NCBI GenBank assembly: GCA_903881545.1
Contig: CAIRTQ010000094.1
Location: forward strand, 1,479 to 65,478
Length of the DNA stretch: 64,000 nt
Direction of reading: 5' to 3'
Source of the DNA: an uncultured Elusimicrobia bacterium
Lineage (GTDB): Bacteria > Elusimicrobiota > Elusimicrobia > UBA1565 > UBA9628
A program made the position numbers and the translations under genes. The notes under the pieces were generated by a model. That model was not told the origin of the DNA and did no database searches. It saw only the letters and a program-made list of their open reading frames with translations. Of this stretch, positions 2,308 to 61,125 are shown in pieces; the stretch's first letter is position 1; each line of letters starts with the position of its first letter.

Positions 2308-3944
<1,637 letters not shown>

Positions 3945-11293: not shown

Positions 11294-11314
11294 GGTCCAT
11301 CGGCCGTTGCCGGT

Positions 11315-12187: not shown

Positions 12188-12220
12188 GCGGCTATAGTAG
12201 CAAATGAGTCCGCGAAGGGC

Positions 12221-34444: not shown

Positions 34445-34516
34445 GTTATCTCCGACCTTATCTCCGACCTTATCTCCGACCTTATCTCCGACCTTATCTC
34501 CGACCTTCTCCCGCGC
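34445..34516. repeat. 12-nt direct tandem repeat (C/G)TTATCTCCGAC x5 plus a degenerate 6th unit
   Basis: Read directly from the sequence: gttatctccgac followed by four copies of cttatctccgac, then cttctcccgcgc. On the minus strand it encodes (KVGD)n. Confidence 0.85.
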
Positions 34517-34792: not shown

Positions 34793-37700
34793 CTACTCCT
34801 TCTCAAACCCATGATTTTCGAACTTGAGGGTACGGCAATTCTCGGTGACGGTACGGACTACATGGTCTGGAACACCGAATGGGATATTCGCCTCGACCTC
34901 CAGGGTGACCTTGACCTCGGAGCCCACGATCCCGGCGAGGTGCGCGATAACCTCGTCGGCAATGCGGCCGGCGTCGCGGCCGACCCGCGTTGTTTCAAGC
35001 GTTACGCTCCCATGGAAACGCTTCGGTGGCGCCGCCACTACAGCAACCTTGGCGCTGGGAGTGCTGCTTCCCGACACCGCGATTGATGGGCCGCCGGACC
35101 CATTGGAAGGTTTCGCCGCCTCGTCCGGCGCTTGAGGGGCTTCGACTGCCAGTTGACGTTGGGCAGCATCTGGACGTACTATCAGGCCCAATGGACTGTC
35201 CTCGGCAATCCAGATGTGTTGACCGAAACGGAGACCACGATAACGGCCTGCGGTTTCGTCAAAACTCTCGGCATAAGCGAAAGAGTCTTGCATCCAGGTC
35301 AACAGAGCAAGGCCGCTCAAGATCGCATCGATGAGAACGGCTGAATCCTTTAGCCGCGGTAGATAGAGATACCGAGCGAAGTCCTCAGCTAATTGCTGGA
35401 TCGCCACATGATCCCCGCCGGCCTGTGCCGTATCCCGCGATGCGGCTGGCGCGCGCCACAGAGGGACCTGATCCAATTCCAATCGCAACCGGCTGGCCGC
35501 TAGCCCCGTAATCAAGAGTTCATCTTTACACAGCTTCTTGCTTGCACGAACCGCCAACGCATCCTGGCCTGTAAGACGGAAGGACTGCCATTCGACTGGT
35601 CCTTGTGGGGTTGCCTGTGTAGGCACAATCAACCACTGGTAGGTTTCTGGCAATCGGGCCGCAACCGCGCTGCTGGCGTTTTCCTTCTGTGCTACAGCCT
35701 GCTTGCTCTGGTGTGGGTCAAGATTGAGCGTTTCCGCTTCGTCGACGATGGAGGACCACGCCAGAAATCGGCGGATGGCCTCGTCCAGGTCTTGAAGCCG
35801 GTTTTTATCGGGCGCGAGAAAAACCAGGGCGTTACGGTAGATGCGCGGAGCGGTCCCGCGATTCTGCACCATCTCTTTCGCGGCCGCGATGGCCGGGCTC
35901 TCCGTGTCCTTAGTGTGCGGATACTCAATGCCGAATACGACCAGCCGAGCGTCCTTATCATCAGGCACGTCACCCGATGTCTTCGGCAATGGATGGATGC
36001 GGCTGAAGTCTCCGGCCTTGCGCAAATCATTGCGGAGCCACTTGCCGACTTCTTCCGCCACGGCATCCGGGTCCGACTTGAGTTGCTCGGCTCGGTCATC
36101 GGCCAGTTTCGTCACCGTCGGCTGTGTCGAATACCAATAGCGAGCAGAATCCTGGTAAAGAAAGGTTGCGGCACCGGCGAGCCGGCGCAAAGCATCGCCG
36201 AAGATGGCCGGCGACTCACCCGGCATCACGCAGCCCAACTTAATCCACCTGTCCTCCAGGCCCTTGTGGGCCGCCTTGGCTGTTGGGGCCGAACCAAGAT
36301 AGACTGTTCGCGCCACACGGCGGCAGGCGGAGTACTTGCCGAGGTTCGGCGTTTCCGCGTCAATGCGCAGCGGAACCGAGTTGGGGCCATCCACATCCTT
36401 TTCGATCACCGGCACCCAGTTGTCGGAGAGATAGCGGGTCAATTCGAACTGCACGCGAGGGTCGTCAATCGGGATATTTGAAGGCAGGATCAACGGACTG
36501 CGGTCGCCTTTCTCCCAGAGGCTGTGGATCACGGTGGCCATCAGACGCAGGACGCCCCGGGTGCGCTGGAACTTCACCAGCGTGGACCAGTCGTTGTACA
36601 GCCGATCAAAGACCTCTGGATGAATAGGATAGGCGGCCTTCAGCCGCCTCTCGTAGTCGCTATCGTGGCACTCCGGTGGAAACTCCGCCTGCTGGGTGCG
36701 ATAGAGGTCGAAGAACGCCTTTGCCACGGTGTCGCGGGCGACAAACTGGTCCTGCTCGATCAAGGGCTCGAACAGCCGCCGGCGCACGATCTCGAACCCC
36801 TCTTCGGCGCTGGCCGGCCGCCAAGATGCTTCCACGCGGCCAATCGAATTGCGCAGGCGGTCAAGCGCGGCCCGGCCGCGCTCACCGCCCACCTCTATGT
36901 CATCGGCCTGCGCGTGTGGCGACCCGGTCGTATCGGACGCCGGCAGACTAACCACCAGCAAGCACTGCTTCGCAAGCTTGGCGGATTCCGTGAGCGCCTG
37001 GGCGAAGGTGAAGTGCGTCTCGAAGTTGCCGCCTGGCAGGTCGCCCTGATCGTGGAGTTGGCGGGCGTAGGCTACCCATTCGTCAATGAGGATCAGGCAC
37101 GGACCGTAGTCGTTGAACAGGGCACGCAGTGCATCCCCGGGATTCGTGGCTCTCTCATCGTCCGCCTGAATGCGCTTAAAAGCCTTCTTAGCTTCTTTCT
37201 CACCGCCAGCCGAGTAGCCGAGCTGCCAAGCGATTTCCCCCCACAAGGTGCGGATCACGGTTCCGCCTGGCTTGGTCACCGGGTTGCCGGGGGAAATCTT
37301 GTTGCCCACCAAAACAACTCGATTGACCTTCGGCAGCTTGGTCACTTCGGCGTGCTGGAGGACCGAGTCCACACCAAGAAGCTCTCCGGGCGCGATGCCG
37401 GAGAAGAGGTGATAGAGGGCCAGCATGGAATGGGTTTTGCCCCCCCCGAAGTTCGTCTGGAGCTGAACGACCGGATCGCCACCCATGCCGCTAAGCCTCT
37501 GGGCGGCACTGGCCAGCAAGCCCCGCAAACTTTCCGTGAGGTAGGTGCGGCGGAAGAATTCCTTCGGTTTGCGGTACTCGTCCGAACCTTCGCCTAAATG
37601 AACCTGCCATAGGTCGGCGGCGAACTCCGCCTGCTGATACTTCCCGCTGGCCACGTCCTTGTGGGGACTCGCAACCTCCTTCCAAGGTTTAAGCCCGGCT

Positions 37701-38194
37701 TGCGCCTGTGTCTCGATGGTTGTGCTGGCGCTCTTGCGCTTTTCCGTGCGCACTTGCTCGTCGAAGCGTACGCGGAGCAATTCCATCTTCATCTTTTCGA
37801 CTTCGTCCGCCTCCGGTGCGGATACGGAAGCCAGAAGCCGGGCGGCGCTGTCCAGGGCGCGGTAGGCGTCGTCGGTGCTGAAGGGCCGCTGATGCGCCCA
37901 GCGATTGCGGGTTTCCCGCAACTCGCTGACTAGCGTGCGTTCGGCCTGCCCCAAGGTTTTGCGGAAAACATCGTTCCACTGGTTCCACATCGTAACGAGG
38001 ATGGCGGATGCATCCCACTGCGGCGCCTCCGGGGTTCCTAGGAGTTGAAGCTGGGAATCGGCGAGGGTGCGCTTTGTGTCAGCGAACCAGTTCGGCGGAT
38101 TGGTGTTTTTTAGCTCGCGCTCGACGAAGGGTTTTAGGCCTGACGACAGCAACTCCAACATCTTGCCGACGCGTTCGTGATTGGTAATGGCCAT
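34793..38194 (-). CDS. DUF499-family P-loop ATPase (BrxC/PglY/HmaC-like) with an N-terminal Swt1-like HEPN domain
   Basis: 1133 aa. The N-terminal ~130 aa carry a HEPN R-x4-H motif (RNRWAHQ). Walker A (NFGGGKTHS) and Walker B (CLILIDEWVAY). Size and architecture fit DUF499 defence ATPases. Confidence 0.8.
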   Translation of the reverse strand: MAITNHERVGKMLELLSSGLKPFVERELKNTNPPNWFADTKRTLADSQLQLLGTPEAPQWDASAILVTMWNQWNDVFRKTLGQAERTLVSELRETRNRWAHQRPFSTDDAYRALDSAARLLASVSAPEADEVEKMKMELLRVRFDEQVRTEKRKSASTTIETQAQAGLKPWKEVASPHKDVASGKYQQAEFAADLWQVHLGEGSDEYRKPKEFFRRTYLTESLRGLLASAAQRLSGMGGDPVVQLQTNFGGGKTHSMLALYHLFSGIAPGELLGVDSVLQHAEVTKLPKVNRVVLVGNKISPGNPVTKPGGTVIRTLWGEIAWQLGYSAGGEKEAKKAFKRIQADDERATNPGDALRALFNDYGPCLILIDEWVAYARQLHDQGDLPGGNFETHFTFAQALTESAKLAKQCLLVVSLPASDTTGSPHAQADDIEVGGERGRAALDRLRNSIGRVEASWRPASAEEGFEIVRRRLFEPLIEQDQFVARDTVAKAFFDLYRTQQAEFPPECHDSDYERRLKAAYPIHPEVFDRLYNDWSTLVKFQRTRGVLRLMATVIHSLWEKGDRSPLILPSNIPIDDPRVQFELTRYLSDNWVPVIEKDVDGPNSVPLRIDAETPNLGKYSACRRVARTVYLGSAPTAKAAHKGLEDRWIKLGCVMPGESPAIFGDALRRLAGAATFLYQDSARYWYSTQPTVTKLADDRAEQLKSDPDAVAEEVGKWLRNDLRKAGDFSRIHPLPKTSGDVPDDKDARLVVFGIEYPHTKDTESPAIAAAKEMVQNRGTAPRIYRNALVFLAPDKNRLQDLDEAIRRFLAWSSIVDEAETLNLDPHQSKQAVAQKENASSAVAARLPETYQWLIVPTQATPQGPVEWQSFRLTGQDALAVRASKKLCKDELLITGLAASRLRLELDQVPLWRAPAASRDTAQAGGDHVAIQQLAEDFARYLYLPRLKDSAVLIDAILSGLALLTWMQDSFAYAESFDETAGRYRGLRFGQHIWIAEDSPLGLIVRPDAAQRQLAVEAPQAPDEAAKPSNGSGGPSIAVSGSSTPSAKVAVVAAPPKRFHGSVTLETTRVGRDAGRIADEVIAHLAGIVGSEVKVTLEVEANIPFGVPDHVVRTVTENCRTLKFENHGFEKE

Positions 38195-38197
38195 GGA

Positions 38198-40027
38198 TTA
38201 CTCCGTTTGGGACAGCTTTGGCGTGTCCAACACCACAATGTCCTTAAAGTGTTCCGCCAGCCGATCTAACTTCTCGGCCACTTCAGGAGGCAAGTCGCTG
38301 GATGCGACGTCCTCGATCATTTGGCAATATTCGCCCTTTCGCAGAAGGACTGGCTGCTTTTGCCGCCGCGCGAACTCCTCGAACACGCCTTCGGCGAATT
38401 CGCTCATCTTGAGGTTACTGAGTAATGTCTTCTGCAAGCTGGCACTGGCCGTCTTATACTCGTCAAGCTGCTGGCGATCTCCAGCAAACACCTTCTTCAG
38501 AAGATGCTCATCCAGCACCTCCTGCATCGTTTTGACGTTCGACTCGGTGAACAAACCGCCTTCCTGATCGAAGACGCCGACAACAAATTTCAGAATGAGA
38601 TCAGGAGTAATATAGTAATTCTCAATCTCATAGCGTTGCCAATAAAGGATATCCAGGCCCTCCCCGCTTTCATCAGACAAGTCCCGCGCATCCTTGTCCA
38701 GAATGGCCAATCCCTTAAACTCCGGCACCAGTCCCTTCATGGCATGAAAATGGCGCTTAATGTTTTCCTGGAATGCCCCGCCCAGCCGATCTAGTTGATT
38801 GTCGAGCGTGTCGGCGGGCCCGACATTACGCGTGTAGTAGTAGTTGATGCGCCCCGCGAGCACCCCTGACGCAGGATGTTTAAGCTTCGCCGCGAGCGCC
38901 TTGAGCGTGTCAAAATCCGTGGATCCTTCGATATAGAGGATTCGGGGACACACTCGCGCTTTGTAGTAATGCTCGACCCCGAATGTCCGCAACGAGTTTC
39001 GCACGTTCTGCATCGTTGCAAGGTCGGCGGCCGTCCCATTAATAAGCAACGTCAGGTTGGTCTCGATCGCGTCGTCCAGAATGACTTCCGAATGTGTGGC
39101 CACCACAACTTGACTATTGTTCTCCGCCGCCACGTCCTTAAGCATCTCATAAACTTGTTTCTGCCGTAAAACTTCGAGATGAGCATCCGGTTCGTCAATC
39201 AGAAGCACGCTGCCCTTATTTGTGTAGAGATAGGAAAGGATCAACAGCATTTGCTGGAACCCACGCCCTGCCAGCGCGATGTCCATGTCGGCGTCAGTAT
39301 CTGGCTGGCTATAGCGCACGACCAATTCGCCGCGCTTCTCGTCTAGGCGTGGTCTGCCGAGCGCAACACCGAACAGTTTCTGGATCAGACGACCGATGCG
39401 GTCCCAATCTTCTGTTCTCTTTTCCTTGTCGTTCTCAACGACCTTGAAGCAGAGGTTGCGGAGCACCTGCGCCGTCTGGCCTTGCCCCAGCAGGACGTTA
39501 ACGCGGCCCTCGGGCACGAGGGTTTCGACCGGCTCAATTCCTGACATCGGGTAGAGCAAATGAAATGGGATGCTGCTCGCATGCGCAATTAGAGCATCGT
39601 CCTTCAGCGTCTCCTCACACGGCCGGCAGTAAAGGACCTCGCTGTCACGCACGGTAAACTCCATGCGACAGTCCTTGACCAGTCCGCCGTGCTCGACGCC
39701 CACATTGACCGTCAAGCGAATGGAGGCATTGTCCTTCCGCACCCGCATTCGGTTCCACAAAAAGCGATTCTCGGAGACCGGCACCTCAAGGATGCTCAGC
39801 CGGTTGATGCCTGCTGCGACCCGCTCTCTCTTTTCCTTCTGCCGAGGCCGGCCCTTGCGCTCGTACCATGCCTGCACGCCGCGGCTCCATAGGGCGAGGG
39901 CCTGGATCACGCTGGTTTTCCCGGCATTGTTTGGTCCGATCAGTACGGCAGGATGTCCCAGGTCCACATGAATTTTCCCACCAAATATCTTAAAGTTCTC
40001 GATTTCGACATAACGAATGCCTCGCAT
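38198..40027 (-). CDS. ABC-type (AAA_15/AAA_21, OLD-family-like) ATPase fused to a C-terminal DUF4435/TOPRIM-like domain (single-polypeptide PARIS AriA-AriB-like)
   Basis: 609 aa with Walker A (GPNNAGKTS), Walker B (VLLIDEPDAHLE) and H-loop (VVVATHS). The C-terminal ~200 aa carry YIEGSTDFD and DKDARD motifs resembling DUF4435 (YVEG ... DRD). Confidence 0.7.
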   Translation of the reverse strand: MRGIRYVEIENFKIFGGKIHVDLGHPAVLIGPNNAGKTSVIQALALWSRGVQAWYERKGRPRQKEKRERVAAGINRLSILEVPVSENRFLWNRMRVRKDNASIRLTVNVGVEHGGLVKDCRMEFTVRDSEVLYCRPCEETLKDDALIAHASSIPFHLLYPMSGIEPVETLVPEGRVNVLLGQGQTAQVLRNLCFKVVENDKEKRTEDWDRIGRLIQKLFGVALGRPRLDEKRGELVVRYSQPDTDADMDIALAGRGFQQMLLILSYLYTNKGSVLLIDEPDAHLEVLRQKQVYEMLKDVAAENNSQVVVATHSEVILDDAIETNLTLLINGTAADLATMQNVRNSLRTFGVEHYYKARVCPRILYIEGSTDFDTLKALAAKLKHPASGVLAGRINYYYTRNVGPADTLDNQLDRLGGAFQENIKRHFHAMKGLVPEFKGLAILDKDARDLSDESGEGLDILYWQRYEIENYYITPDLILKFVVGVFDQEGGLFTESNVKTMQEVLDEHLLKKVFAGDRQQLDEYKTASASLQKTLLSNLKMSEFAEGVFEEFARRQKQPVLLRKGEYCQMIEDVASSDLPPEVAEKLDRLAEHFKDIVVLDTPKLSQTE

Positions 40028-40039
40028 AGCTTTACCCCT

Positions 40040-41506
40040 TTAGAACAGCTCTGCCTGCGGTGTCTGAGATTCCCCGTCCTTGCGTGATAGGCGGGCCAAT
40101 TCCGGCCAGCCCATCACCAGCGCATTATAGCTTTGAGCGCCCTTACTCCACTGCTTCTTCTCGCAGACGGTGAACAGTTTATAGGCCAGGTCGCGGGCCA
40201 CATCCGCTTTACCGCCCAACTTGCGCAAGAGCGCCGCTGTGGCCGCGTCGCCTCGCTTCTCGGATACATACACGCGCAGCAGGTGATGGGTCATCTCCCA
40301 TACTGTCAGGCGCTTGTCCGTAGTGGGATCCCAGTCAGCCGGCAACTCCTCCGGACGAAGAAGACGGACCTGGTTGCCCTTGACCTCCACGATGCCAGCG
40401 GCGACGAGGCCATTCATGGCAGTGGCCTGCGCATTGGCCAGCAGGTTGGCCTGTCCGGCCTCGCCCCATTCAAATCCCGTGCCGGCGAACCAGGTCACCG
40501 CCCACCGCGTGTCCTTGTCGAGTTCCTCAACGGCCTCACCAAGCAATTCATCCTTCATGCCGTTGATGAGGGCCAGCGCGGTGCGAACGGCCATCGGCTT
40601 GCCATTGCTCTCCAACACGGCGGAGTAGCGGGAAAAGACCGCCATGCCGGGACCGATGGCCGCTTGCGCAAAGTCCACCGGGGCCACGTTGCCCTGTTGT
40701 AGATGGTGTAGCGCTGGCGGTAGCTCGCGTTTTAACTCTGCCACGAACGCATTCCGGCCGACTCGTAGCGCATCCGCCGGGCGCGGCCTACAGGCGAGCA
40801 CGATGTAGGAGGCTAGAGCGTTGGAACCCATCGCGCGCATTCGCCATGCTTGCGATGCGCGTACCGGCCACGTCCCAGTAATCTGGAAGTTGCTTGAGAT
40901 CAGTGCGTCAAGGAGCGTCTCCCAGCCTGTTGTGAGATCAATTCCCGCGGCCTCCGTCGATGCTTCATCCGCACCGCTTCCCTCGTCGTCTTGCTTGAAA
41001 GCGTAGTAAACGGTAAGCGGGAAGTGCGGATCCATCTCGTCCCGCAGGGCCGTGAAAGCCTTCCGGAATCCCGTCTCAAAATGTTGCTTAGCCCTTTCCT
41101 TGTCGCCCTCGAACCGGTCGGGAGAGGCGATCAGTTCCGTCATCTTGGGGACGAGCACGGTACGGAAAATGTCCGGATAATGTTCTCCGATTGTGCGTCT
41201 CAGCCAGACATAGGAGAAGTCCGACAGCGCGCCGTAGCTAATATTGTCGTAGTAGGGCGGATCGGTGCTGACCAGCAAGTTGCGGAGGCCGTTTGCGCCG
41301 GGGCAGCGTCGGCTTGGTGGACTGTCGCTACGGCTTCCGGATTCGGCGTTATCGTCTGAATGGCATCTGCGCATATGTCGACCGCGGTGTGCCAGCACAC
41401 GGCTTTTTCGCCCATTATGTTTGGCTCGACGAAGTCCCAGACCAACCGAATGACCTGTAGTCCGAAGAGATCCATTGACTGCTGACCACTCGCTTTCCAC
41501 CGGCAC
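40040..41506 (-). CDS. DUF1156-family N6-adenine DNA methyltransferase, C-terminal part (real portion begins near nt 41300, containing DPPYYDN motif IV)
   Basis: LLVSTDPPYYDNISY... and the downstream C-terminal domain. Upstream of about 41300 this frame is R/S-rich nonsense. Confidence 0.75.
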   Translation of the reverse strand: MPVESEWSAVNGSLRTTGHSVGLGLRRAKHNGRKSRVLAHRGRHMRRCHSDDNAESGSRSDSPPSRRCPGANGLRNLLVSTDPPYYDNISYGALSDFSYVWLRRTIGEHYPDIFRTVLVPKMTELIASPDRFEGDKERAKQHFETGFRKAFTALRDEMDPHFPLTVYYAFKQDDEGSGADEASTEAAGIDLTTGWETLLDALISSNFQITGTWPVRASQAWRMRAMGSNALASYIVLACRPRPADALRVGRNAFVAELKRELPPALHHLQQGNVAPVDFAQAAIGPGMAVFSRYSAVLESNGKPMAVRTALALINGMKDELLGEAVEELDKDTRWAVTWFAGTGFEWGEAGQANLLANAQATAMNGLVAAGIVEVKGNQVRLLRPEELPADWDPTTDKRLTVWEMTHHLLRVYVSEKRGDAATAALLRKLGGKADVARDLAYKLFTVCEKKQWSKGAQSYNALVMGWPELARLSRKDGESQTPQAELF

Positions 41507-42870
41507 AGAGCATTATTGAAGTCTGCGCAGCGATCAACCGCGAGGGCAAGAAACGTCGCCACCGACTGGGCATAGGCACCGGCCTCTGCATGGGTCCAAC
41601 CCGCCGCAATAGCATCGCGCCGCACGTCCGCGTCGATCTCCTTTACTAGGTCACTCAAAGTCACCATTGCCGTGAGCTGCCGGGGAGTAAAAAGCTGCCA
41701 GTGCTTCCGAATGCCGTAGTTCTGAACCCGGAAGCCTAGTGCTTCATCGGGAAGATCTGTATCTGGGAAGCCCTGCGGTTTGGCTGAATTAGCGGCCTCG
41801 ACCTGCTCCGGGCTTATCGGGATATAAGTACGACCGCGGGGGAGCTCAGCTACAACTGCGAGCATGACGCATCCCAGCCGACCACTTTGCCCTTCACTGC
41901 GAATGTACTCAAATGGGATGGGTGCGTCGGTGAGCAGGCACCGAAACCCCCCCCTGCCTCCCTTCGTTCCCTCATCAATTTGTGTCCGATTTACGGGCGC
42001 TCCCGTCCGCACCACAAACCGGTAAGTACACTTGGCCTTGTCCACCACCGGCTCCATCCAGTGATAAGGCGGCTTCTTGTCCTTCCTTGGGGAATTCAGC
42101 CAATACGTGCTGATGAGCGGCACATGGATGCCTCGTGCCGCAGGGTTCGGGCTAGCAACCGTGCGAGCCCAAATCCATGCGATGACGTTGGCCTCGCCGC
42201 TTCCATTTTCCTTAGGCAGGTGCACCTTAGGGTAAAGACTTCCAATCTTCGCATACGCTCTATGGCGAACCAGCCGCCCGTAGTAGCGTACGTCGGCTGC
42301 GAGTCCGTTCGCGCCGTGCCAAGACTGTGTACCTCCAATCCGCTTACGGTCCTCCGAATTTACGGGCGGTCTATTCACCCAGCGCGGCGCAAGCTCCAGA
42401 TTGCACTTGTTGAGCATCACTGCGATAGGATTTAGGTCGCCTGCGTGGGCTTCAAATCCAAGTCGGTTAGCCTCAAGAGGGATGGATCCACCGCCGGCAA
42501 ACGGGTCAAGCACGGGCGGGAGCTTTCCGTCGCAGTGCTTGAGCATCTCCTCCTGTGCCTCAGCATAGACCTCCGGATGTTCATGGAGTTTCTTGCCCAT
42601 GAGTCGCCGGATGATCCCGAACAGTCGCTCCCGCTCAGCATCCTGCTTGGCCTCGCTCTTGCCCGCCCACGCCGGATTATCCGAAGGATCGGTCACGACC
42701 GAAGCGAACAGCACCGCCCGCGCGGTCGGCAGCGGCAACCGCGCCCACCAGTGGTGGATGCCCTTCGGATGCGGCCCGATTCCCGGCATCTTGTCGTAGG
42801 ACGACGCATCGTTGATCTCTGGCAGCGGGAGCGCCACCTCGATAAGCTTCTTTTTATACGGAACCGTCAT
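41200..42870 (-). CDS. DUF1156-family N6-adenine DNA methyltransferase, N-terminal part (real portion 42870 down to about 41300; frameshifted relative to the C-terminal part)
   Basis: Starts MTVPYKKKLIEVALPLPEIN (DUF1156 signature N-terminus) with SAM-binding DPFAGGGSIP (motif I). The frame degenerates after about 41300. Its ATG overlaps the PIN gene's TGA stop as ATGA. Confidence 0.75.
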   Translation of the reverse strand: MTVPYKKKLIEVALPLPEINDASSYDKMPGIGPHPKGIHHWWARLPLPTARAVLFASVVTDPSDNPAWAGKSEAKQDAERERLFGIIRRLMGKKLHEHPEVYAEAQEEMLKHCDGKLPPVLDPFAGGGSIPLEANRLGFEAHAGDLNPIAVMLNKCNLELAPRWVNRPPVNSEDRKRIGGTQSWHGANGLAADVRYYGRLVRHRAYAKIGSLYPKVHLPKENGSGEANVIAWIWARTVASPNPAARGIHVPLISTYWLNSPRKDKKPPYHWMEPVVDKAKCTYRFVVRTGAPVNRTQIDEGTKGGRGGFRCLLTDAPIPFEYIRSEGQSGRLGCVMLAVVAELPRGRTYIPISPEQVEAANSAKPQGFPDTDLPDEALGFRVQNYGIRKHWQLFTPRQLTAMVTLSDLVKEIDADVRRDAIAAGWTHAEAGAYAQSVATFLALAVDRCADFNNALCRWKASGQQSMDLFGLQVIRLVWDFVEPNIMGEKAVCWHTAVDICADAIQTITPNPEAVATVHQADAAPAQTASATCWSAPIRPTTTILATARCRTSPMSG

Positions 42871-43418
42871 GGGCACGCTCTGAGCAGGCGCGGATGAGAG
42901 GTCAAAACATCGATCCCGCCAGAGGTGAAATCGCCATCGTTGGTGACCAGTTTCCAGCCATGATGACGGCAAGTCTCGGCGAGGAGGCCGTCGTTGAAGT
43001 CATTCACTCCAGTCTCAAAGTCAGCAAGTACTTGCGTGACGTTGGCGGCGGAAAATGGATGGTCGTGCCTAGTGCAGAGTTTAAGCATTTCTCGTGCGTA
43101 CGTGGCGGCGCCTGCCCCCACAGACTTAAAAGCGGGGGATTTGCGGAACATTTTAAAGTCCGGCTGCGCCGCCTTGTGTAATGCAATCCACTCGATCCGG
43201 CAGTAGCGGTTGAGGTACTCGCTGAGGATCAGTGCATCCATAACCAGGCGTGATCCAGCGGTCAGTATGCCCTTCAGGGCGTTCGAATAGCTGGCAGCAC
43301 GCCAATCGGGCTTATTGGACGGGGCCGGATAGAGGTAGAGCCAGACATTGGCATCCAGCAAAAAGGGCTCGTTCTTCTGGAAAGCATACTTGGAGAGGTC
43401 GTGAGCTTTATTCTTCAT
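42867..43418 (-). CDS. PIN-domain nuclease (VapC-like)
   Basis: About 183 aa from MKNKAHDL. Conserved acidic residues in LLDANVWL, DALILSEY and TNDGDF. Confidence 0.7.
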   Translation of the reverse strand: MKNKAHDLSKYAFQKNEPFLLDANVWLYLYPAPSNKPDWRAASYSNALKGILTAGSRLVMDALILSEYLNRYCRIEWIALHKAAQPDFKMFRKSPAFKSVGAGAATYAREMLKLCTRHDHPFSAANVTQVLADFETGVNDFNDGLLAETCRHHGWKLVTNDGDFTSGGIDVLTSHPRLLRACP

Positions 43419-43767
43419 TATTGCCCACCTCTTCCTTCCACGCCGCATCAAATCGTTTCGGGGCTTTGAAATACGCCTTAGCGTTTTCGACCACGCGCTT
43501 GAGGACTATGCGGTCTTCCTCATCCATGTCGCGGACCGAAAGCAGTTCCCTAATTCGGTCTTCAGGGAACTTGCCGTAGAGCTGCCCAATCGCGGCGTTG
43601 AGGAAAGACGAGATCATCGTCTCCACCTGCTCAAAGGAGAGGGAAACTTTCTTCCCCTCGCTCAGCAGGAGAGCGATCTTGTCGTAAACGCGTTGGCCAT
43701 CATCGGCAGATACGCCCAACGGACCACCGACGATATCGAATACACGAACCACAATTGGCTCACTCAT
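43408..43767 (-). CDS. DUF4325-like (STAS-like) small protein
   Basis: 119 aa (MSEPIVVRVFDIVGG...GKKVSLSFEQVETMISSFLNAAIGQLYGKF) resembling the STAS-like DUF4325 family. Overlaps the PIN gene by 11 nt. Assignment is from memory of the family and is unverified. Confidence 0.45.
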   Translation of the reverse strand: MSEPIVVRVFDIVGGPLGVSADDGQRVYDKIALLLSEGKKVSLSFEQVETMISSFLNAAIGQLYGKFPEDRIRELLSVRDMDEEDRIVLKRVVENAKAYFKAPKRFDAAWKEEVGNNEE

Positions 43768-43785
43768 CTTTCCACTCCATTCTGT

Positions 43786-44655
43786 TTAGAAAATGCTCTC
43801 TGGCGGTATCTCCGACGCCAGAACATAGGATTCTGTGTCGGCAGTGTTGATCTCGATGGTCACGGCCGTACCAGGGAAATCTGCAGCCATCTTCGCGAAG
43901 GACTCCTGGCCATCGCCGAACTCGTAAAATCCGAATCGGGAGGCGATCTGAATTCGGCCCTTGTTCAGCCGGACGAATTCCTGAAGAAACTTCAGGCCCA
44001 ATCCCCCCGGTTGAGGCCCTCTCTTCGTGGTATGGCCCTCCTGCAATGCCCAGCGAATCGCATCAACAGAAGACATTTTGCCGCCGAGAAATCGGCGGAC
44101 GCTTTCCCTAATGCCAATGCCCGCATCCACAATCGTCAGATCGAGTCTTTGCTTCTGCGGGAAGAACTGTCCGCAAACGAAGATCCCGAGTTCTGACTCG
44201 GAATGAATCACGGCATTCTGGAAGACCTCAAAAATCTTCTTCTTAAACACTTTGCCGAGCCCTTCGGACATGCGAGGAATGCCCTTGCCTCTCAGGTGCC
44301 GTTCCACGTAATCGGCAAAGAGCCCTTCGTCCGAACGCTGGAGGCGGCGAAACGGAATGGTGGTTCGGTTCACGTCGTCCAACGCCGGGTAACGGTATTG
44401 CGTCAAGAAACCGTTTTTCCGCAAGATGTGTTCCACCATTTCCGGAACGCTGACCACTTCAATGGCATTGAAGCGATCTGCTACTCGCGCCAGCACCGCC
44501 CCGAGAGGGGCAGCCATGTTGGCGGCGAAAAAACCGACTTGGGACAGATCGAGTTCCAAACGACTGGCCGAAAGCATAGCAGTTTCTCTGGCCAACTCCG
44601 CCAGCCGTTCGTATCCATCCCGGCCGCTTTGGACTGTTGGCAAGCGGGAGATCAT
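43786..44655 (-). CDS. GHKL-superfamily ATPase (histidine-kinase/RsbW-like ATP-binding domain) with an unknown N-terminal domain
   Basis: 289 aa with N-box (EVFQNAVIHS), G1 (IVDAGIGI) and G2 (GGLGLKF). Its ATG overlaps the helicase TGA as ATGA. Confidence 0.7.
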   Translation of the reverse strand: MISRLPTVQSGRDGYERLAELARETAMLSASRLELDLSQVGFFAANMAAPLGAVLARVADRFNAIEVVSVPEMVEHILRKNGFLTQYRYPALDDVNRTTIPFRRLQRSDEGLFADYVERHLRGKGIPRMSEGLGKVFKKKIFEVFQNAVIHSESELGIFVCGQFFPQKQRLDLTIVDAGIGIRESVRRFLGGKMSSVDAIRWALQEGHTTKRGPQPGGLGLKFLQEFVRLNKGRIQIASRFGFYEFGDGQESFAKMAADFPGTAVTIEINTADTESYVLASEIPPESIF

Positions 44656-47600
44656 GATGGCGCTCCAGCCCGCTCTAGCAAATCTGCAAAATTGTAATTT
44701 ACGCTGGTCACGCCGAAGTCTGGCTCCCGCCGGAAAGGGTGGCGGACATAATGAACCCGCTGTTTCTCGCCGTCGAATTCAACGATGGCGAGAATGAAGT
44801 CATCGGGTTTGTTGAGCGAGTACAGGATTTCATTCTTGGTGACGGTGATCGTGGCGGCGCCCGTGACGCGTCCCTTCACCTCAATAAAGCGCAGCCGCCC
44901 GGTGCCAGGCACGCGGCTCTCGATGTCGTAGCCCAGCTTCTCGGTCTCGCGGTCGGCGGGGATGAAGCCCAGGCCGCGCTCGACCATCATCACGGCCTCG
45001 CGTGCTCGCGCTGCCGCGGCCAAGGTGTCGGCTGCGACGCGTGGGAGTTCGGCGGAATGACCTGTCATGGCGGCAAGCAGGCCCGCAGGTATCACCACAA
45101 GGCCGCCCAACACGACCGGGGGCAAAGGGGCGATCTGCCGTTCGAGTTTGAGTTCCTCCATCCGCTTCTGCAACCGTCCCTGAAGGGCATCCGCGCGTTT
45201 CCGCGCTTCATCCGAGTTAAGTCGCGCATTAGGCCTGCCCGCCTGTTCCTGGAGCTTAAGCTCTTCGGCGCGGTGGTCCCAATAGCTGATCTCCTTCGTC
45301 AATCGGTCCTGCACCGCCGCCTCGGTCTTAGCAATGAGATCGAGCTTGCGCGCGCGAACCTCATTAAGGTGTTCGGGCACGACATTCGCGACGGCGTACC
45401 CCTGCGCTTTTTGCTCCAGTTCTCGGGTTATCCAAGCGCATTCCGGTCGGGCCAATATCGCGTCCACCGCCGGTTCGCCGTCCGCCAACGGGCGATAATC
45501 CAGGTAGGGCGCATAATGCGGATTGCGCGCGTTGCCGTCCGCCTCCAGTTCCACATAAAGCATCCGCTTGGATATGACGCGACGCTCCCCCGCCGCCATG
45601 GCGGCGGCAGGCAGGCCCGTCCGTGCCAGGCTTGCGTCCTGAATGGCATGCTCCAGATAAAAGAGTACGCGAGGGCGTGTCCCGCAGTCGCGCTCGTCGA
45701 CCAGCACCGTGCCGCGGCGCAGCAAATCGCGATGGCGTTCAAGGGTGAGGTCTATGGTGACGTCCAGTAACGGGTGCCCCGGGCACAGGAATGCGGCCAG
45801 TGGCTGGCCCTGCGGAGCGACCAGGGATTTCTCAAAGGCAACCCGCTCGTAGCGCGACAACAACGGCTCGGCGATTCCAATGAGCCGGTCGCGATTGCGC
45901 AGAGGAGATGGGACATGCGCGATCTCATAGCGGCGCGGTTCGCGCTGCTTAACCGAACCCCCCAAACGCTGGAAGGCATCGAGGAAGAAAGATTCAACGT
46001 AATGGGGTTGCAAACGACGCGCCTCGGCTCGCTCCATCTCCTCGCGAATGCGGTACACGCGAGTGGCGTCCATCGCGTCGTGCGCGAGAGCATGTTCTTC
46101 GAGCAAATCGCGCAACTTGGCAGGGTCCACGGAATTGGCGACCACTTGCGTAAGCTTGGCGCGAACATCGGGGCGTTCCCCGTAACGAATCGCCTCGATC
46201 AAGAGCTCACGCAGAGGTTTTCCCCCAAATTGGAGCTTCCCTAGCACATCAAAGACTTGGCCTCCCAGGGTTTCCCGGGCCTGTTCCAGCTTTTCCAGCA
46301 GAGTTCGGTATACGTCTCCCTCGCGGGTTTCTTCGGCGACGAGATTCCAAAGATGACAGACTTCGGTCTGTCCAATGCGATGAATACGGCCGAACCGTTG
46401 CTCGATACGGTTCGGATTCCATGGCAGATCATAATTCACCATCAGGTGCGCCCGCTGGAGGTTAATCCCTTCGCCAGCGGCATCCGTCGCCAAAAGGACC
46501 TGAACTGCGGGATCGTGTTTGAATGCTTCCTGCGCCTTCATCCGCTCCTCACGGCCCATGCCGCCATGAATCATCACTACTGCTTCCTTTCGCCCAAGAA
46601 GGGTCGTAATTCGATTCTCTAAGTAGTTGAGGGTGTCGCGGTGCTCGGTGAAGAGGACAAGTTTCTGGCGCGGGGACGAAGTCGGCGGCGGGATTGTCGC
46701 AGACCCGTGAGTGAGTGGGCGCTCAGCCACCTGGGTGGCATGGATGGCGGACGTGAAGATTTCGTTTAACAGTTGGGAGAGCTCACGCCACTTCTTATCC
46801 TCACCGCTCCGGCGGAGCGTGAGCGCCAGCGCTTCAAGGCGCTTTAGCGTCGTGATTTCCGCTTTCAGTTCCGAGATTGTTCGCGCCGCGGTCGACTGGT
46901 CGAGAATCTCCTCTTCCGCCGTCTCGACCTCATTATCAGGGGCGTCTTCGAGATCTTCAACATCCTCATCATCCAGCACCGGGATCCCGGCCGCCATGGC
47001 AGGCGCGGTTACGCTCCCCCGCTGGAGTAATTTCAACTCTTCCAGTTTGCTTTCCAACCGTTCGCGACGACGACGCAACGACTGATAGATGGCTTCAGGC
47101 GACGAGGCCAAACGGCGCTGCAAAATAGTGAGCGCAAAACCGACGGTGCCGGCGCGCTTATCGTTCTGAAGCGCATCAGCCCGGTTGAACTCCTCGCGAA
47201 CGTAGTCGGTCACTTCCTTGTAGAGTTGCGCCTCCGCATCGGAGAGCTTGTATGGAACAGTGTAGGCTATCCGTTCCGGAAACAGCGGAGTCGCATCGAA
47301 CTTGAGCAGCCCTTCCTTGACCATGCGCCGCATCAGATCAGAGGCGTCAGAGGCGTGAACGCCATCACGGAAGCGTCCCTCGAATCTATCCCCATCGAGG
47401 AGCGCCATGAAAAGCTGAAAATCCTCTTCCTTGCCATTGTGCGGCGTCGCGGTCATCAGCAAGAAATTCCGGGTCATAGTGGAGAGAAGCTGACCGAGCT
47501 TGTAGCGCTTCGTATACTTGACCTCGCCATTGAATATGCTGGCGGACATCTTATGCGCCTCGTCGCATACGATGAGATCCCATCGGCAGTCGGGAGCTCT

Positions 47601-48257
47601 CAGCTTGTCTTGAACATCCTCATTGCGCGAGAGCTTGTCGAGCCGGGCGATGACCAGGTTTGTCTCAAGGAACCAGTTGCCAGTGCGAGCGGATTCCAGC
47701 TTGTCATTGGTCAATATCTCAAAAGGCAGGTGAAATCGACGATAGAGCTCATCTTGCCATTGCTCGGCCAGACTGCCTGGACAGACCACCATACAACGAT
47801 GCAGGTCTCCTCGGGCAATTAACTCCTTCATGAGGAGCCCTGCCATGATTGTCTTGCCCGCGCCAGGGTCGTCGGCCAACAAAAAGCGCAGGGGTTGACG
47901 CGGCAGCATCGTGTCGTAGACCGCCGTGATCTGGTGCGGGAGTGGCTCAACTACTGAGGTGTGGACGGCAAGGACCGGGTCAAACAAATGGGCCAATCGG
48001 ATCCGATGAGCTTCGGAGACTAGGCGAAACAGCGCGCCATCCCCATCAAAACTCCATGGCCGTCCTTGAAGGGCCACCTCGACACGCGCTTCGTCCTGAC
48101 GATATAAAAGCTCGTTAGACACTTTACCGGCTGGGTCTTTGTAGGTTAACTCAAGGGCGTCCGAGCCGAACCACTGAACATTGACGACAGAGACAAGGCA
48201 TTCCGGTAAAATGCCTCTTACTGAAGCGTTCGGTTTTAGTTCCTCTAGCTTGCTCAT
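44652..48257 (-). CDS. SNF2/DEAD-like superfamily-2 helicase with C-terminal DUF3883 (HmaA-like)
   Basis: 1201 aa from MSKLEELKPN. Motif I (LADDPGAGKT), motif II (DEAH), helicase C-terminal motifs (LLATDAAGEGINLQ, QRFGRIHRIGQ). C-terminal domain (IEVKGRVTG...TKNEILYSLNKPDDFILAIVEF) typical of DUF3883. Confidence 0.85.
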   Translation of the reverse strand: MSKLEELKPNASVRGILPECLVSVVNVQWFGSDALELTYKDPAGKVSNELLYRQDEARVEVALQGRPWSFDGDGALFRLVSEAHRIRLAHLFDPVLAVHTSVVEPLPHQITAVYDTMLPRQPLRFLLADDPGAGKTIMAGLLMKELIARGDLHRCMVVCPGSLAEQWQDELYRRFHLPFEILTNDKLESARTGNWFLETNLVIARLDKLSRNEDVQDKLRAPDCRWDLIVCDEAHKMSASIFNGEVKYTKRYKLGQLLSTMTRNFLLMTATPHNGKEEDFQLFMALLDGDRFEGRFRDGVHASDASDLMRRMVKEGLLKFDATPLFPERIAYTVPYKLSDAEAQLYKEVTDYVREEFNRADALQNDKRAGTVGFALTILQRRLASSPEAIYQSLRRRRERLESKLEELKLLQRGSVTAPAMAAGIPVLDDEDVEDLEDAPDNEVETAEEEILDQSTAARTISELKAEITTLKRLEALALTLRRSGEDKKWRELSQLLNEIFTSAIHATQVAERPLTHGSATIPPPTSSPRQKLVLFTEHRDTLNYLENRITTLLGRKEAVVMIHGGMGREERMKAQEAFKHDPAVQVLLATDAAGEGINLQRAHLMVNYDLPWNPNRIEQRFGRIHRIGQTEVCHLWNLVAEETREGDVYRTLLEKLEQARETLGGQVFDVLGKLQFGGKPLRELLIEAIRYGERPDVRAKLTQVVANSVDPAKLRDLLEEHALAHDAMDATRVYRIREEMERAEARRLQPHYVESFFLDAFQRLGGSVKQREPRRYEIAHVPSPLRNRDRLIGIAEPLLSRYERVAFEKSLVAPQGQPLAAFLCPGHPLLDVTIDLTLERHRDLLRRGTVLVDERDCGTRPRVLFYLEHAIQDASLARTGLPAAAMAAGERRVISKRMLYVELEADGNARNPHYAPYLDYRPLADGEPAVDAILARPECAWITRELEQKAQGYAVANVVPEHLNEVRARKLDLIAKTEAAVQDRLTKEISYWDHRAEELKLQEQAGRPNARLNSDEARKRADALQGRLQKRMEELKLERQIAPLPPVVLGGLVVIPAGLLAAMTGHSAELPRVAADTLAAAARAREAVMMVERGLGFIPADRETEKLGYDIESRVPGTGRLRFIEVKGRVTGAATITVTKNEILYSLNKPDDFILAIVEFDGEKQRVHYVRHPFRREPDFGVTSVNYNFADLLERAGAPS

Positions 48258-54470: not shown

Positions 54471-57400
54471 ATGAGAATCGCGCTCATACAATGTCCGCTT
54501 TGGGGGACGTTCGACCCTCCCATAGGCTTGGCGCAGATGGCCTCGTTCATGAAGAGCCAGGGTCATGAGGTCGCCGCCTGGGACATCAACATCAAGGCGT
54601 TCTTGAGCCAGCCGGAGGAGCGCAAGAGCCTCTGGGCCTGGGAAAAGACCGAGCTGTGGACCTTCCCGGACCAGGTCCAGAGGATATTCTCGGAGAATCT
54701 GGGGGTCGTGGACCGCTGCATCGACCAGGTGCTCGGACGCGGGATCCGCTTGCTCGGCATCTCCGTCAATTCGGCTTCTTACCTGTTCAGCCTGGAATTC
54801 GCCCGGCGGCTCAAGTCCCGGGAAGGCCGCATCCGCATCGCGCTGGGCGGGCCGTTCTTCCTGAAGCCGGCCGCGACGGCCGACGCCCTGCGGGAGGACT
54901 GCGTCGATTTCGTCATCGCCGGAGAGGGCCTCGCGGCTTTCGCGGAGCTGGCCCGCAGGCTCGACTCCGGCGCGGATGCCTCCGGCTGTCCGGGAGTGGC
55001 AGGCAAGGGCGCCGGACTGGAGGTGAGCAATCCCCCGCCGCCGCCCGCGGACTTGGACGCCCTGCCGTTCCTGGACTTCAGCGATCTTCCTCTCGGCGAT
55101 TACGACACCGGCAATCATCTCTCGCTGATGACGAGCCGCGGCTGTCCCAGGCAGTGCCACTTCTGCAGCTGCGCGCCCTGCTGGCCGGGCTACCGGGTCA
55201 TGAGCGGGCGGCGCATCTTCGAGGAGGTCAGGCACCACAAGGAGCGGTTCGGGCACGGGCTGGGGCATGTGGATTTCGTGGACCTGGCCTTCAACGGGAA
55301 CATGGAGTCGCTGTCGCAGTTCTGTGCCCTGATGGACCGCGCCGACCTCGACCTCAGCTGGACGGCCAACATGTACGTGCGCCCGGAGATGAAGGCTCCC
55401 GTCATCGCGGCGATGGCGCGCGCCCGCTGCCGGCACGTCATCCTGGGCATCGAGTCGGGGTCGGAGCGCGTGCTCAAGCTGATGAACAAGCATTATCGGA
55501 TCGCGGACGCCGAGCGGATGCTGCGCGAGCTGTTCCAGGCCGGGATATGCGTCACCGCGAACTTCATGTTCGGATTCCCCGGTGAGACCGAGGCGGATTT
55601 CCAGCTCACGCTGGACTTCCTGCGGCGCAACGCCCGTTACATGGGAGTCTATCCCAGCCGGACTTACTGCGCCCTCGAGGAGAACAGCCTCCTGGCCGCG
55701 CACCCGGAGCGGTTCGCGATCAAGCCATCTTCCGCGAGCCACATCTTCTGGGAAAGCAGCGACGGCCGGAACACCTATCCCGTCCGCATGGACCGCTGCC
55801 AGCGCTTCTGCCGGCTGGCGGCCAAGCTGGGCGTCGGGACCAGCGCCGGGGTGCAGACCACGGTGCCGCTCGAGGAATGGCTCACGCTGGGGGCCTATTA
55901 CGAGTTCAAGGGCGACATCCCCAAGGCCATCCAGAGCCTGGCCAAATACTTGAGGCGCGACCCGTGCAATCAGGAAGCGAGGCGGCGCCTCGAGGGCCTG
56001 CGCGGCCGCATCCCGTCCTTGGGCCTGGACCGCAAGAAGTCGGACGGCTTGCGCTCATTGGCGGAGCAAACCCTTTCGCGCCGGCCCACGGCCAAGGCGG
56101 TGCGCAGGGACAGGCCCCTTTCTCCCGTGTTCCTGTCCGTCCGGATGACTTGGCTGGCGGCGCGGCTGGGACGGCTCTCTAAGCGCCGGATCTCCTATCC
56201 GGAGACCATGGCAGTCAAGAAGATCATCACCGAGATCGTCCAGATCGCCAGGCTCCAGAAGCGGTTCCCCCCCAAGGTGTCCCGGGGCTTGCTGCGCCAG
56301 ATGGAGCGGCTGCGGCGTCAGGCCCGCGCCCTGCCGATGGCAAGGGGTCTGAAACTAGAGGAAGGCCTGGCCGGCGACGACCCCTCTTATGTTCAGCTGG
56401 GCATCGCCTCCAGCGAACGGGGCGAATTCCCCCAGGCGTTGAGATTTCATGCCAAAGCCATCGCCATCAATCCCTATAATGACGACGCCTATTGTTATAT
56501 GGGCAACATCCTGCGCAAACAGGGTCAGATGAAGGAATCCGACGCGGCTCTCCAGAAAGCCTTGGAGATTAATCCAAGCAACGACACGGCACGCAGCGGT
56601 TTGGGCTGCTTGTACTTCAGCCAGGGCAAGATTGCAGAGGCCTTGGAGGAGCTCACGAAGGCTATCGGGATAAACCCCAGGAATGACTGGGCTCATAACA
56701 TCCGTGCGGACATCTATCTTAGTCAAGGCCGATTATCCGATGCGGAGGCTGATGCTGTAGCGTCCATAAGAATAGATCCCAGGAACGACGGGGCGCATTG
56801 CAAATCAGGTAAGATCCTCCGGCTCCAGGGCCGTCTGGCCGAGGCGGAAGCGGCATTTGAGAAGGCGTTGGAGGTGAACCCGCGCTGCGTTGAAGCCTGC
56901 ACCGCATTGGGAGACATGCTTCAGTCCCAGCATAGGATCGCGGAGGCTGAAGCGGCGTTCCAACAGGCCGTCGCCATGGATCCGAATGATTATGGGGCGC
57001 ACTTATTTTTGGGCCATATCCGTCGCGAGCAAGGAAGATTGGCGGAGGCCGAAGCGCTCTTCAAACGGGCCTTCGCGATAGACCCCCGTAGCGAGGGCAT
57101 CTGCACGGATCTGGGACAGTTCTATCTTGCGCAAGGCCGGCTTTTGGAGGCGGAAGAAGAGATTCGGAAAGCCATAGAGATTAATCCCAAGAATATCTGG
57201 GATTATCTCATCAGGTCGGATATCCACTGCGGTCTGGGCCGGCTGCCCGAGGCCGAGGCGGACATCCGGAAAGCCACGGAGATCGATCCGCGGAACGACG
57301 GGGCGCATTGCAAATTAGGCAATATCCTCCGGCTCCAGGGCCGCCTGGCCGAGGCGGAAGCCACATTTGAGAAGGCGCTGGAGGTGAACCCGTGCTGTGT

Positions 57401-59594: not shown

Positions 59595-60572
59595 GAAGGG
59601 CAGGTGCCGGTAGAAGACCTCCGCCGGATCCTTCGCGTCTATTTCAGCCGCCGGGCGCCGAAGTTCCTCGGCGGCCATGCGTTCTAGCCAGGGCCGCGTT
59701 TCCGGGAAATGCTCCTGATATGCTTCGCAAGTCTGGTCGAAGTCTTCCGGGTCGCACGCCTCGCCCCGGCCGAAATACAGGCGTAGTCCGAGCACGCGGG
59801 TATATAGGAAAAAGAGCCGGTAGGTATTGCATCCCGCCCACGAGCGCAGGCCGAAATGTCGTAGGGAAAGCGCCAACTCCGCCGCAGCTTGGCGGGCGCC
59901 GCGCTGCAATTGCGCCGGCGAGGGACGCCGCAGCCGGCCGGGGTCGAACCCGCAGCGCAATCGGTAGTGGCCGGCCCACAGGGGATGGCGGCTCAAGGCC
60001 CGAATCCACAGTCCGTCGCCACGGTCCGGCCCGCCCAAGGCCCATGCAAAGAAGGGCGTATCCAGATGCGGTGAGAGCAGCAGCCCCTGGAGGACATTCC
60101 TCGTGATCAGCCAGCCGGCGCTGCGGAACCGGGTTTCCTCCCTATGCCAAAAGTCCATCAATAAGGAGACCTTGCGCAAGGCGTGGAGCCCCGGGGCCTC
60201 GGGTAGGACCACGTACCAATGCAGCATGGTGTCCATGAAGAAACCCGCCCCTGGGCCAATCTTTGCAATCCGCTCCAGCCATTCATCGGGATAGGAATTT
60301 TTTGGCGCGGCGTGCGGCAGTTCCGAAGCGCATGCCTCCTCGGGCCCATCGCCGAGTCCGGAGCAGAATCCGTCCAGCCGGCCCAGCGCGAAGCCCAGCA
60401 GGGCCATGGCTTGCTCGCGGTCCATCCGCTCCGGAAGCAGCAGGCTGCGCCGGATCTCTGGGGAGCATCCGCTGGCGATGCCGGCATGGGCGTGGCCGCG
60501 TTCCGCGGCCGACGGCAACCCCTGCTGCGCTGCCTCGATGTGGCGTAGCACGTCCAGGAACCCTTTGATCAT
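59553..60572 (-). CDS. Hypothetical protein; possibly the C-terminal portion of the upstream nucleotidyltransferase gene
   Basis: 339-aa ORF with ordinary protein-like composition. It overlaps the 60283..61125 ORF in another frame. Confidence 0.4.
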   Translation of the reverse strand: MIKGFLDVLRHIEAAQQGLPSAAERGHAHAGIASGCSPEIRRSLLLPERMDREQAMALLGFALGRLDGFCSGLGDGPEEACASELPHAAPKNSYPDEWLERIAKIGPGAGFFMDTMLHWYVVLPEAPGLHALRKVSLLMDFWHREETRFRSAGWLITRNVLQGLLLSPHLDTPFFAWALGGPDRGDGLWIRALSRHPLWAGHYRLRCGFDPGRLRRPSPAQLQRGARQAAAELALSLRHFGLRSWAGCNTYRLFFLYTRVLGLRLYFGRGEACDPEDFDQTCEAYQEHFPETRPWLERMAAEELRRPAAEIDAKDPAEVFYRHLPFLRAQFDAAMAAQE

Positions 60573-61125
60573 GCGGAAGCCGAAATCCGGAGCCGCGGGC
60601 GGTCGCGCGGACTCGGAATAGGTCTGGGTTAAAAAGAGGTAGGCGGCCAGCGCCTCGTGCAGGTGTTGGAGGCTGGCGTCGGAGCCCGGGCCTGCCGGCG
60701 CGGGGAGACCGGGTGCCCCGCAGGGGCTTCCAGGTGCGTGAGTCCATCCGGCGGATTCCGCCCCAGGCCAGGTAATCCGAAAATTCCGCCGGCGTGGCGA
60801 TTTGCAGTTCGCCCAGCATGGGCGAGAGAAGTTTGGCCCAGCCGTAACGGCGCCAGAGGCCCCGCAAAAGAGCGGTTTCCCGGCCGGCCGGAATATCGAG
60901 GACCATGAGCAGATCCATGTCGCTGACGCCAGGCGTCAGCCCGCGCCGGCTGAGCCCGCGGCGCAGGTAGAGAGCGACCAAGGAGCGGCCCAACGGCCAG
61001 GCTAGCAGCAGCGCCGCCAGGCGGAGCCCCCCAGCATAGGCGGCGCGGTAGCAGGCCCCTAGGACAGGCCAGTCACGGGTCCTTATCACGAGGCGTCGCA
61101 GTGCGGTTGCTCCGGGCATCGACAT
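60283..61125 (-). CDS. Nucleotidyltransferase-domain protein (Pol-beta superfamily, GS-x9-DxD: GVSDMDLLMVLD); only the first ~125 aa look real
   Basis: The N-terminal 125 aa are protein-like with the NTase motif. The remainder of the ORF is R/P/G-rich wrong-frame-like text overlapping the next ORF. Confidence 0.5.
   Translation of the reverse strand: MSMPGATALRRLVIRTRDWPVLGACYRAAYAGGLRLAALLLAWPLGRSLVALYLRRGLSRRGLTPGVSDMDLLMVLDIPAGRETALLRGLWRRYGWAKLLSPMLGELQIATPAEFSDYLAWGGIRRMDSRTWKPLRGTRSPRAGRPGLRRQPPTPARGAGRLPLFNPDLFRVRATARGSGFRLPHDQRVPGRATPHRGSAAGVAVGRGTRPRPCRHRQRMLPRDPAQPAASGADGPRASHGPAGLRAGPAGRILLRTRRWARGGMRFGTAARRAKKFLSR

Follow-up and report, generated by a model that had tools for sequence, protein, structure and literature searches.

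The Hma system, composed of the HmaA helicase, the HmaB methylase and the HmaC ATPase, takes its name from Payne et al. (2021), as cited in PMC11232893. In the latter study, Liu et al. (2024) tested the system and found that HmaA alone protects Escherichia coli from phage T4; protection was shown for the Halomonas HmaA only, in E. coli. The Snf2 helicase with a PD-(D/E)XK nuclease was recognized there as the effector of Hma, gene insertions were found in about two thirds of Hma loci, and hmaB was missing from ~15% of hmaA loci (PMC11232893). The methylase gene is probably dispensable. The Type-1 DUF499-centered BREX-related (BR) architecture has been described for 2446 taxa (NAR 2026, PMC12839542), and in the mode of action proposed for it the methylase marks self DNA, the ATPase scans for and recognizes invaders, and the helicase-nuclease restricts them (PMC12839542).

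We analyzed a 64,000-nt stretch of DNA (the window) from an uncultured Elusimicrobia bacterium. The region between 34.8 and 48.3 kb encodes HmaA, a DUF1156-containing HmaB whose gene carries a 1-nt deletion, and an HmaC with DUF499 fused to HEPN. Judged by its predicted proteins, this region is a typical Hma (Type-1 DUF499-centered BREX-related) system and a standard member of a described defense family. Its genes and the features of hmaB discussed below are as follows:

44652–48257, minus strand: hmaA, Snf2 helicase with a C-terminal NOV_C / PD-(D/E)XK nuclease, 1201 aa, intact (PADLOC, Pfam)
43786–44655, minus strand: HATPase_c gene, 289 aa, between hmaA and hmaB (Pfam)
43408–43767, minus strand: DUF4325 STAS-like gene, 119 aa, between hmaA and hmaB (Pfam)
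42867–43418, minus strand: PIN gene, 183 aa, between hmaA and hmaB (Pfam)
41302–42870, minus strand: N-terminal part of hmaB (DUF1156 N6-adenine methylase), codons 1–523, with the DUF1156 domain, motif I DPFAGGGS and the variable target-recognition region
41300–41303: frameshift site, GGGG on the plus strand (CCCC on the coding strand)
41200–41301, minus strand: out-of-frame tail of the N-terminal frame of hmaB, 32 junk residues in translation (PAQTASATCW...), TGA stop at 41202–41200
40040–41299, minus strand: C-terminal part of hmaB, codons 525–943 and the stop codon, with motif IV DPPY and a C-terminal HTH-like region
38198–40027, minus strand: AAA_21/AAA_15 ATPase gene (AriA/GajA-like N-terminal ATPase), 609 aa, between hmaB and hmaC (Pfam, PADLOC)
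34793–38194, minus strand: hmaC, DUF499 ATPase with an N-terminal Swt1-like HEPN, 1133 aa, intact (PADLOC, Pfam)

As in the described Hma loci, the core genes lie in the order hmaA, hmaB, hmaC and their three products match the PADLOC profiles over almost the full length. HmaA covers positions 1–1171 of 1176 (1697 bits) and contains the Pfam domains SNF2-rel_dom, Helicase_C and NOV_C, while HmaC covers positions 3–940 of 941 (1123 bits) and contains HEPN_Swt1 (E = 4e-37) and DUF499. Defense-type genes are inserted between the core genes here too, including the AAA_21 ATPase between hmaB and hmaC. The locus differs in its Elusimicrobiota host, in the N-terminal Swt1-like HEPN of HmaC, in the nature of the HATPase_c, DUF4325 and PIN inserts, and in the frameshift that hmaB bears in the record. 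The architecture is the same as in the Type-1 BR system, in which the DUF499 ATPase is fused to HEPN, the DUF1156 N6-methylase contains a TRD insert and the Swi2/Snf2 helicase bears a PD-(D/E)XK nuclease at its C terminus. The locus deviates from it only by the base missing from the methylase gene in this contig. A first-pass annotation of the same DNA had described the operon around the methylase as otherwise intact, which is correct for hmaA, hmaC and the accessory genes. The GC content of the island is 54–63%, vs. 63–74% in its flanks.

The trio of HATPase_c, DUF4325 and PIN genes (42867–44655) occurs with the same genes and the same lengths in a 37,261-bp ENA contig described below and in three close relatives (L079–L081). 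All close relatives found have the trio, which may represent an accessory sensor-effector module of this Hma variant. The gene for the 609-aa ATPase is absent from L079–L081, as seen both in their gene tables and by blastn. These three relatives, the flanks of which are ~98% identical to the window, carry a different hmaB allele of 934 aa in the region corresponding to 38198–42116. Its ends are at least 90% identical to those of the HmaB of the window, and much of its middle part, about residues 240–680, is 27–75% identical. Taken with the ATPase, this difference looks like a specificity cassette swapped within one population. Between hmaC and the saccharopine dehydrogenase gene, at 34446–34507, we also observed a perfect 12-nt tandem repeat, TTATCTCCGACC, in 5.2 copies, of which close relatives have 2–3 fewer.

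The hmaB gene is a single DUF1156 methylase gene on the minus strand that runs from 42870 to 40040 and changes frame at GGGG 41300–41303. The ORF of its N-terminal frame occupies 41200–42972, with the true ATG at 42870, and its product begins MTVPYKKK... (MTVPYKKKLIEVALPL...). The ORF of the C-terminal frame occupies 40040–41506 and contains ...NLLVSTDPPYYDNISY, in which STDPPYY is motif IV. The two frames overlap by 307 nt. Pfam DUF1156 matches residues 13–85 of the N-terminal frame (E = 2.6e-18), and the PADLOC HmaB profile PDLC00660 (967 positions) is matched at positions 6–566 by the N-terminal frame (E = 1e-146) and at positions 568–960 by the C-terminal frame (E = 1e-143). As the two frames match consecutive parts of one profile, they represent one hmaB gene cut in two. 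Both N6-adenine methyltransferase motifs are present, the SAM-binding motif I (DPFAGGGS) in the N-terminal frame and the catalytic motif IV (DPPY) in the C-terminal one; since they lie on opposite sides of the break, neither fragment has a complete catalytic core.

Alignment with 40 homologs gave the consensus HQxDAA[T/S/A/N...]GANGLRNLLVSTDPPYY at the junction, of which the window provides HQADAA from one frame and GANGLRNLLVSTDPPYY from the other. Ala523 is encoded by GCC at 41304–41302 and Gly525 by GGC at 41299–41297, so that just CC (41301–41300) is left of codon 524 and exactly one base is missing. The first-pass annotation had proposed a DUF1156 methylase split by a frameshift near 41300, an overlap of about 300 nt between two open frames, and motifs I and IV divided between them. 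Translation and alignment bear out each of these points, the homologs fixing the junction to the base; the G run was seen correctly as well, although its coordinates, then read as 41301–41304, were one base off.

A single ORF is the conserved state of the gene. All of the best 120 homologs of HmaB are single ORFs of 919–976 aa, with 65–73% identity and ~100% coverage. The comparison with DUF1156 orthologs that the first-pass annotation called for thus located the junction and gave the length of the full-length proteins, while the idea, also raised there, that a methylase split into two ORFs might be the conserved state did not hold, as a near-identical assembly has one 943-aa ORF as well. Among the 78 hmaB loci on GTDB genome contigs, 58 gave one full-length tblastn match and most of the remainder were cut at contig ends; other exceptions were an in-frame insertion (L053), an in-frame deletion (L060) and an extra short match (L022), and splits into several frames were found only in L070 and L077. 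On JGI metagenome contigs one full-length match was obtained for 77 of 80 loci, with two contig-end cuts and one extra short match. The best match to the window among GTDB species representatives had 77% identity over its best-matching segment. A protein-guided scan of the JGI metagenome contigs detected no hmaB relative above 73% identity, and an exact-pattern scan of the same contigs, in which either hmaB allele was permitted, found nothing. A homolog search with 280 aa around the junction returned only fragments of other alleles and the C-terminal fragment of the window itself.

Broken hmaB genes recur across public assemblies. L070 and L077 each show several frame changes at different places, and L077 also contains a 1-kb insertion. 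Many DUF1156 fragments of 200–490 aa, located on contigs of 80 kb to 2.7 Mb, appeared in the search with the junction region. In L060 (JACRDO010000060.1, an Elusimicrobia MAG, 10001–12367), hmaB lacks residues 316–482, most of the variable region, in frame; the HmaC of this locus is at least 90% identical to that of the window.

By exact look-up of the 609-aa ATPase encoded beside hmaB, we found the 37,261-bp contig of ENA sample ERZ1426829 (here the sister contig). Its gene order equals that of the window from ~27.5 kb to the window end, and the contig runs on past position 64,000. It contains an intact DUF1156 gene of 2832 nt, vs. 2831 nt in the window, the 943-aa product of which (P0121) consists of the two hmaB frames of the window with one Ser between them, residues 1–523 and 525–943 being identical. 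When seven repairs of codon 524 were looked up exactly, only that with Ser was on record (P0121), and those with Pro, Thr, Ala, His, Leu and Arg were absent. Of the single-base insertions at 41296–41305, only an A after plus-strand position 41301 gives P0121 exactly. Parsimony, applied to the protein, gives GGAGG for the intact allele (GCC TCC GGC on the coding strand, Ala-Ser-Gly). The GGGG of the window was thus made by the loss of an A and not by the shortening of a homopolymer, contrary to the earlier idea that the G run had been the substrate of the indel.

About a dozen proteins match exactly between the window and the sister contig, once the frameshifts in HmaB and in a nucleotidyltransferase-like protein are allowed for. 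This match was confirmed directly for HmaA, HmaC, the 609-aa ATPase and DUF4325, and was deduced from cluster membership for PIN, HATPase_c, DUF58, BatA, OrnDC, GDT1 and a permease. Three proteins differ by a single residue: MoxR (Q18R), a GATase-like protein (S/T) and saccharopine dehydrogenase (Y/H). The two assemblies represent different, if very close, genotypes. The 66,187-bp contig deposited at both NCBI and ENA has on record the aberrant ORFs seen in the window, i.e., a 444-aa hmaB fragment (P0122), a 528-aa groEL product and a 339-aa fragment, so the indels belong to the public record and were not introduced later.

The first-pass annotation had counted the break in hmaB as the third apparent frameshift of the window, after groEL and a nucleotidyltransferase gene. 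All three were verified, and each is a single-base event. The two further sites are:

2308–3935, minus strand: groEL, with an A missing after plus-strand position 2665
59553–61125, minus strand: nucleotidyltransferase-like gene, 523 aa, with an extra G at 60702 (GGGG 60699–60702) and a GVSDMDL motif

With E. coli GroEL as the query, tblastn hit groEL in two frames. The site falls on a Leu that is invariant in 28/28 close homologs (LLRAxxxL[D/E]KF), and the DNA of relatives that are ~96% identical (L172, L173, L175) reads CCAGGG where the window has CCGGG. The deletion removes the T of this Leu codon (LLRAASA-L-DKFEG), and restoring the base yields a GroEL of 542 aa. The best GroEL matches (92%) are from Elusimicrobia MAGs, in line with an Elusimicrobiota host. 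groEL is normally essential, and it is very unlikely that its truncated form is a real mutation. The ORFs at 5.6–8.2 kb encode LOG, DctM and DctQ and are not groEL. For the nucleotidyltransferase-like gene, a 3008-bp contig of sample ERZ18660621 (L168) aligned with the window over 3009 bp with 0 mismatches, the sole gap being GGG instead of GGGG. Without one G, the gene encodes exactly the 523-aa P0269 of the sister contig, and three assemblies other than L168 carry it intact (521–523 aa). A Pfam search with this protein, in which GVSDMDL was the motif noticed, gave no match.

At all three indels, GG on the plus strand stands directly 3′ of the junction, as it does at only 10% of the junctions of the window; a single context-dependent process is suggested. 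By eye, no methylation-type motif common to the three sites was found beyond this GG. Homopolymer runs of 6–9 nt in genes of the window were in frame in 33/33 cases, including the C8 of hmaB itself at 41947–41954 (plus strand). The contig is thus free of a general homopolymer-length problem and does not come from a grossly homopolymer-error-prone process. A classic homopolymer-length error was rejected on these grounds and because it was a lone A that was lost at two of the three sites. The systematic indel error suspected at first is still a serious explanation with regard to the three frameshifts, but not in the form of a general homopolymer fault. The window resembles draft and metagenome assemblies with frameshifted genes, in which single-base indels hit conserved genes, including the essential groEL, and are absent from other assemblies of the population; unlike in the classic 454, Ion Torrent or nanopore pattern, its indels do not sit at the longest homopolymers. 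Apart from these sites, the C8 runs at 41947–41954 (hmaB) and 37440–37447 (hmaC) on the plus strand keep the frame, and the sister contig encodes identical proteins. Such eight-base tracts could slip in principle, and their frequency in the window is not above that expected from base composition.

Methylases are classic phase-variable genes, and phase variation was among the explanations first offered for the break. In the phasevarions of Haemophilus, Neisseria and Helicobacter, however, the tracts that vary in length are long, with ~8 or more identical bases or with numerous tetra- or pentanucleotide repeats. The hmaB of the window shares with such genes an ORF interrupted at a G run, but this run is only 4 nt long, far too short, and was born of the loss of an A, so that the intact GGAGG allele has no tract and the two alleles do not differ in tract length; the G8 tract of hmaB (41947–41954) is in frame. 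Programmed −1 frameshifting at CCC-CGG could likewise restore the 943-aa protein in some ribosomes, as phase variation would in some cells, and a slip of tRNA-Pro from CCG to CCC at 41302–41299 would give ...DAAPGANG..., compatible with the pattern of the homologs. Against this, the junction lacks a slippery heptamer of the canonical X XXY YYZ form, a 121-nt RNA that spans the shift site and extends downstream to the stop of the N-terminal frame folds no better than shuffled sequence (z = −0.28), the two-frame arrangement is kept in none of the 120 homologs, and the frameshifted loci L070 and L077 break in several frames at other places. A programmed frameshift was therefore rejected, and regulated expression of either kind is very improbable. 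A naturally split enzyme, with the SAM-binding/TRD part and the catalytic part made as separate proteins, is still less credible and can practically be dismissed. Both halves are long ORFs, and an ATG at 41374 could start the second one, which gene callers do report (P0122). The 307-nt overlap, though, consists of junk on either side, and the break interrupts a conserved block, seven codons ahead of the motif IV Asp. Comparison with the homologs, none of which is split at that point, and with the single ORF of the sister contig led us to reject a two-subunit methylase.

The remaining choice is between a fault of the record and a mutation of the organism. We infer that the break in hmaB most likely stems from faulty assembly or consensus calling of this 66-kb contig and not from the organism itself, because the gene is intact in a near-identical public assembly. 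The intact hmaB would then be an ordinary single-ORF 943-aa DUF1156 N6-adenine methylase gene in the Hma locus of an Elusimicrobiota genome. One A, which corresponds to the T of the TCC codon of Ser524, is missing from the plus strand of the deposited contig between 41301 and 41302, probably owing to the assembly or consensus step, and its loss splits the reading frame. Between the gene products of the window and the sister contig, we counted three amino-acid substitutions vs. two frameshifts, both on the side of the window. This indel-to-substitution ratio is far above what selection normally leaves in coding DNA and favors an error. By contrast, a real single-base deletion that inactivated hmaB in the assembled genotype, by decay of the system or relief from its cost, with the gene intact in a co-occurring genotype, is unlikely, though it deserves consideration. 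Its product would be the N-terminal fragment of 523 aa followed by 32 junk residues. In its favor, the frameshift is on public record, with the 444-aa P0122 from the 66,187-bp contig, and the intact copy belongs to a genotype that is not quite the same (three amino-acid differences), so that a strain-specific hmaB mutation is conceivable; the hmaB site is covered by no independent assembly of the very genotype of the window. Moreover, the locus is a horizontally acquired, fast-changing island of lower GC, relatives 98% identical in the flanks have swapped the hmaB allele and the ATPase cassette, and disrupted hmaB genes exist elsewhere (L070, L077, and fragments on long contigs). The gene is seemingly dispensable for HmaA-mediated defense (PMC11232893), and a real loss would therefore probably be tolerated. 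The long homopolymers of the contig are in frame, and outside the three sites the window agrees almost perfectly with other contigs of the same strain (~4.2 kb, the nucleotidyltransferase site excepted, with 2 mismatches and 0 gaps), which also speaks against a faulty record. On the other hand, the groEL frameshift of the same contig is not plausibly real, and a sister sample has yielded a 100% identical contig in which the nucleotidyltransferase-like gene is intact. Natural divergence does not look like three fresh frameshifts within 64 kb, all one-sided, vs. three substitutions, and a lone A lost between pairs of G is not a typical slippage mutation.

If the deletion were nevertheless real, the 523-aa fragment would have motif I and the TRD but no motif IV, and would hence not methylate; the literature suggests that the system would then be disabled or merely altered and the cell not killed. 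It is doubtful that one Elusimicrobiota genotype with intact HmaA and HmaC but without the Hma methylase coexists with a genotype in which hmaB is intact. Were this true, it would be natural evidence that the Hma/BR effector spares unmethylated self DNA without a methylase, as in BREX and unlike in classic restriction-modification, and an instance of defense-gene polymorphism within one population; it would offer a modest natural experiment on whether an Hma/BREX-related nuclease needs the methylase for self-protection. Under the preferred explanation, an error in the contig, the best annotation is a single hmaB of 943 aa in which a sequence error is suspected, rather than a pseudogene or a pair of proteins. 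With at least three single-base indels in the contig, care is needed with other conclusions drawn from it.

Two further proteins of the window were noted. At 54471–59594 on the plus strand, a 1707-aa protein combines a radical SAM domain (residues 221–384) with a subsequent very long TPR array that contains near-identical internal repeats; its exact sequence is not on record, and the sister contig has a gene of equal length. The stretch at 61.1–64 kb was considered as ORF-poor and rich in frameshifts, and this was rejected, as it holds one intact ORF of ~893 aa (61362–64000, plus strand) that encodes a Gly/Ser/Thr-rich fn3-domain protein and runs off the window end.
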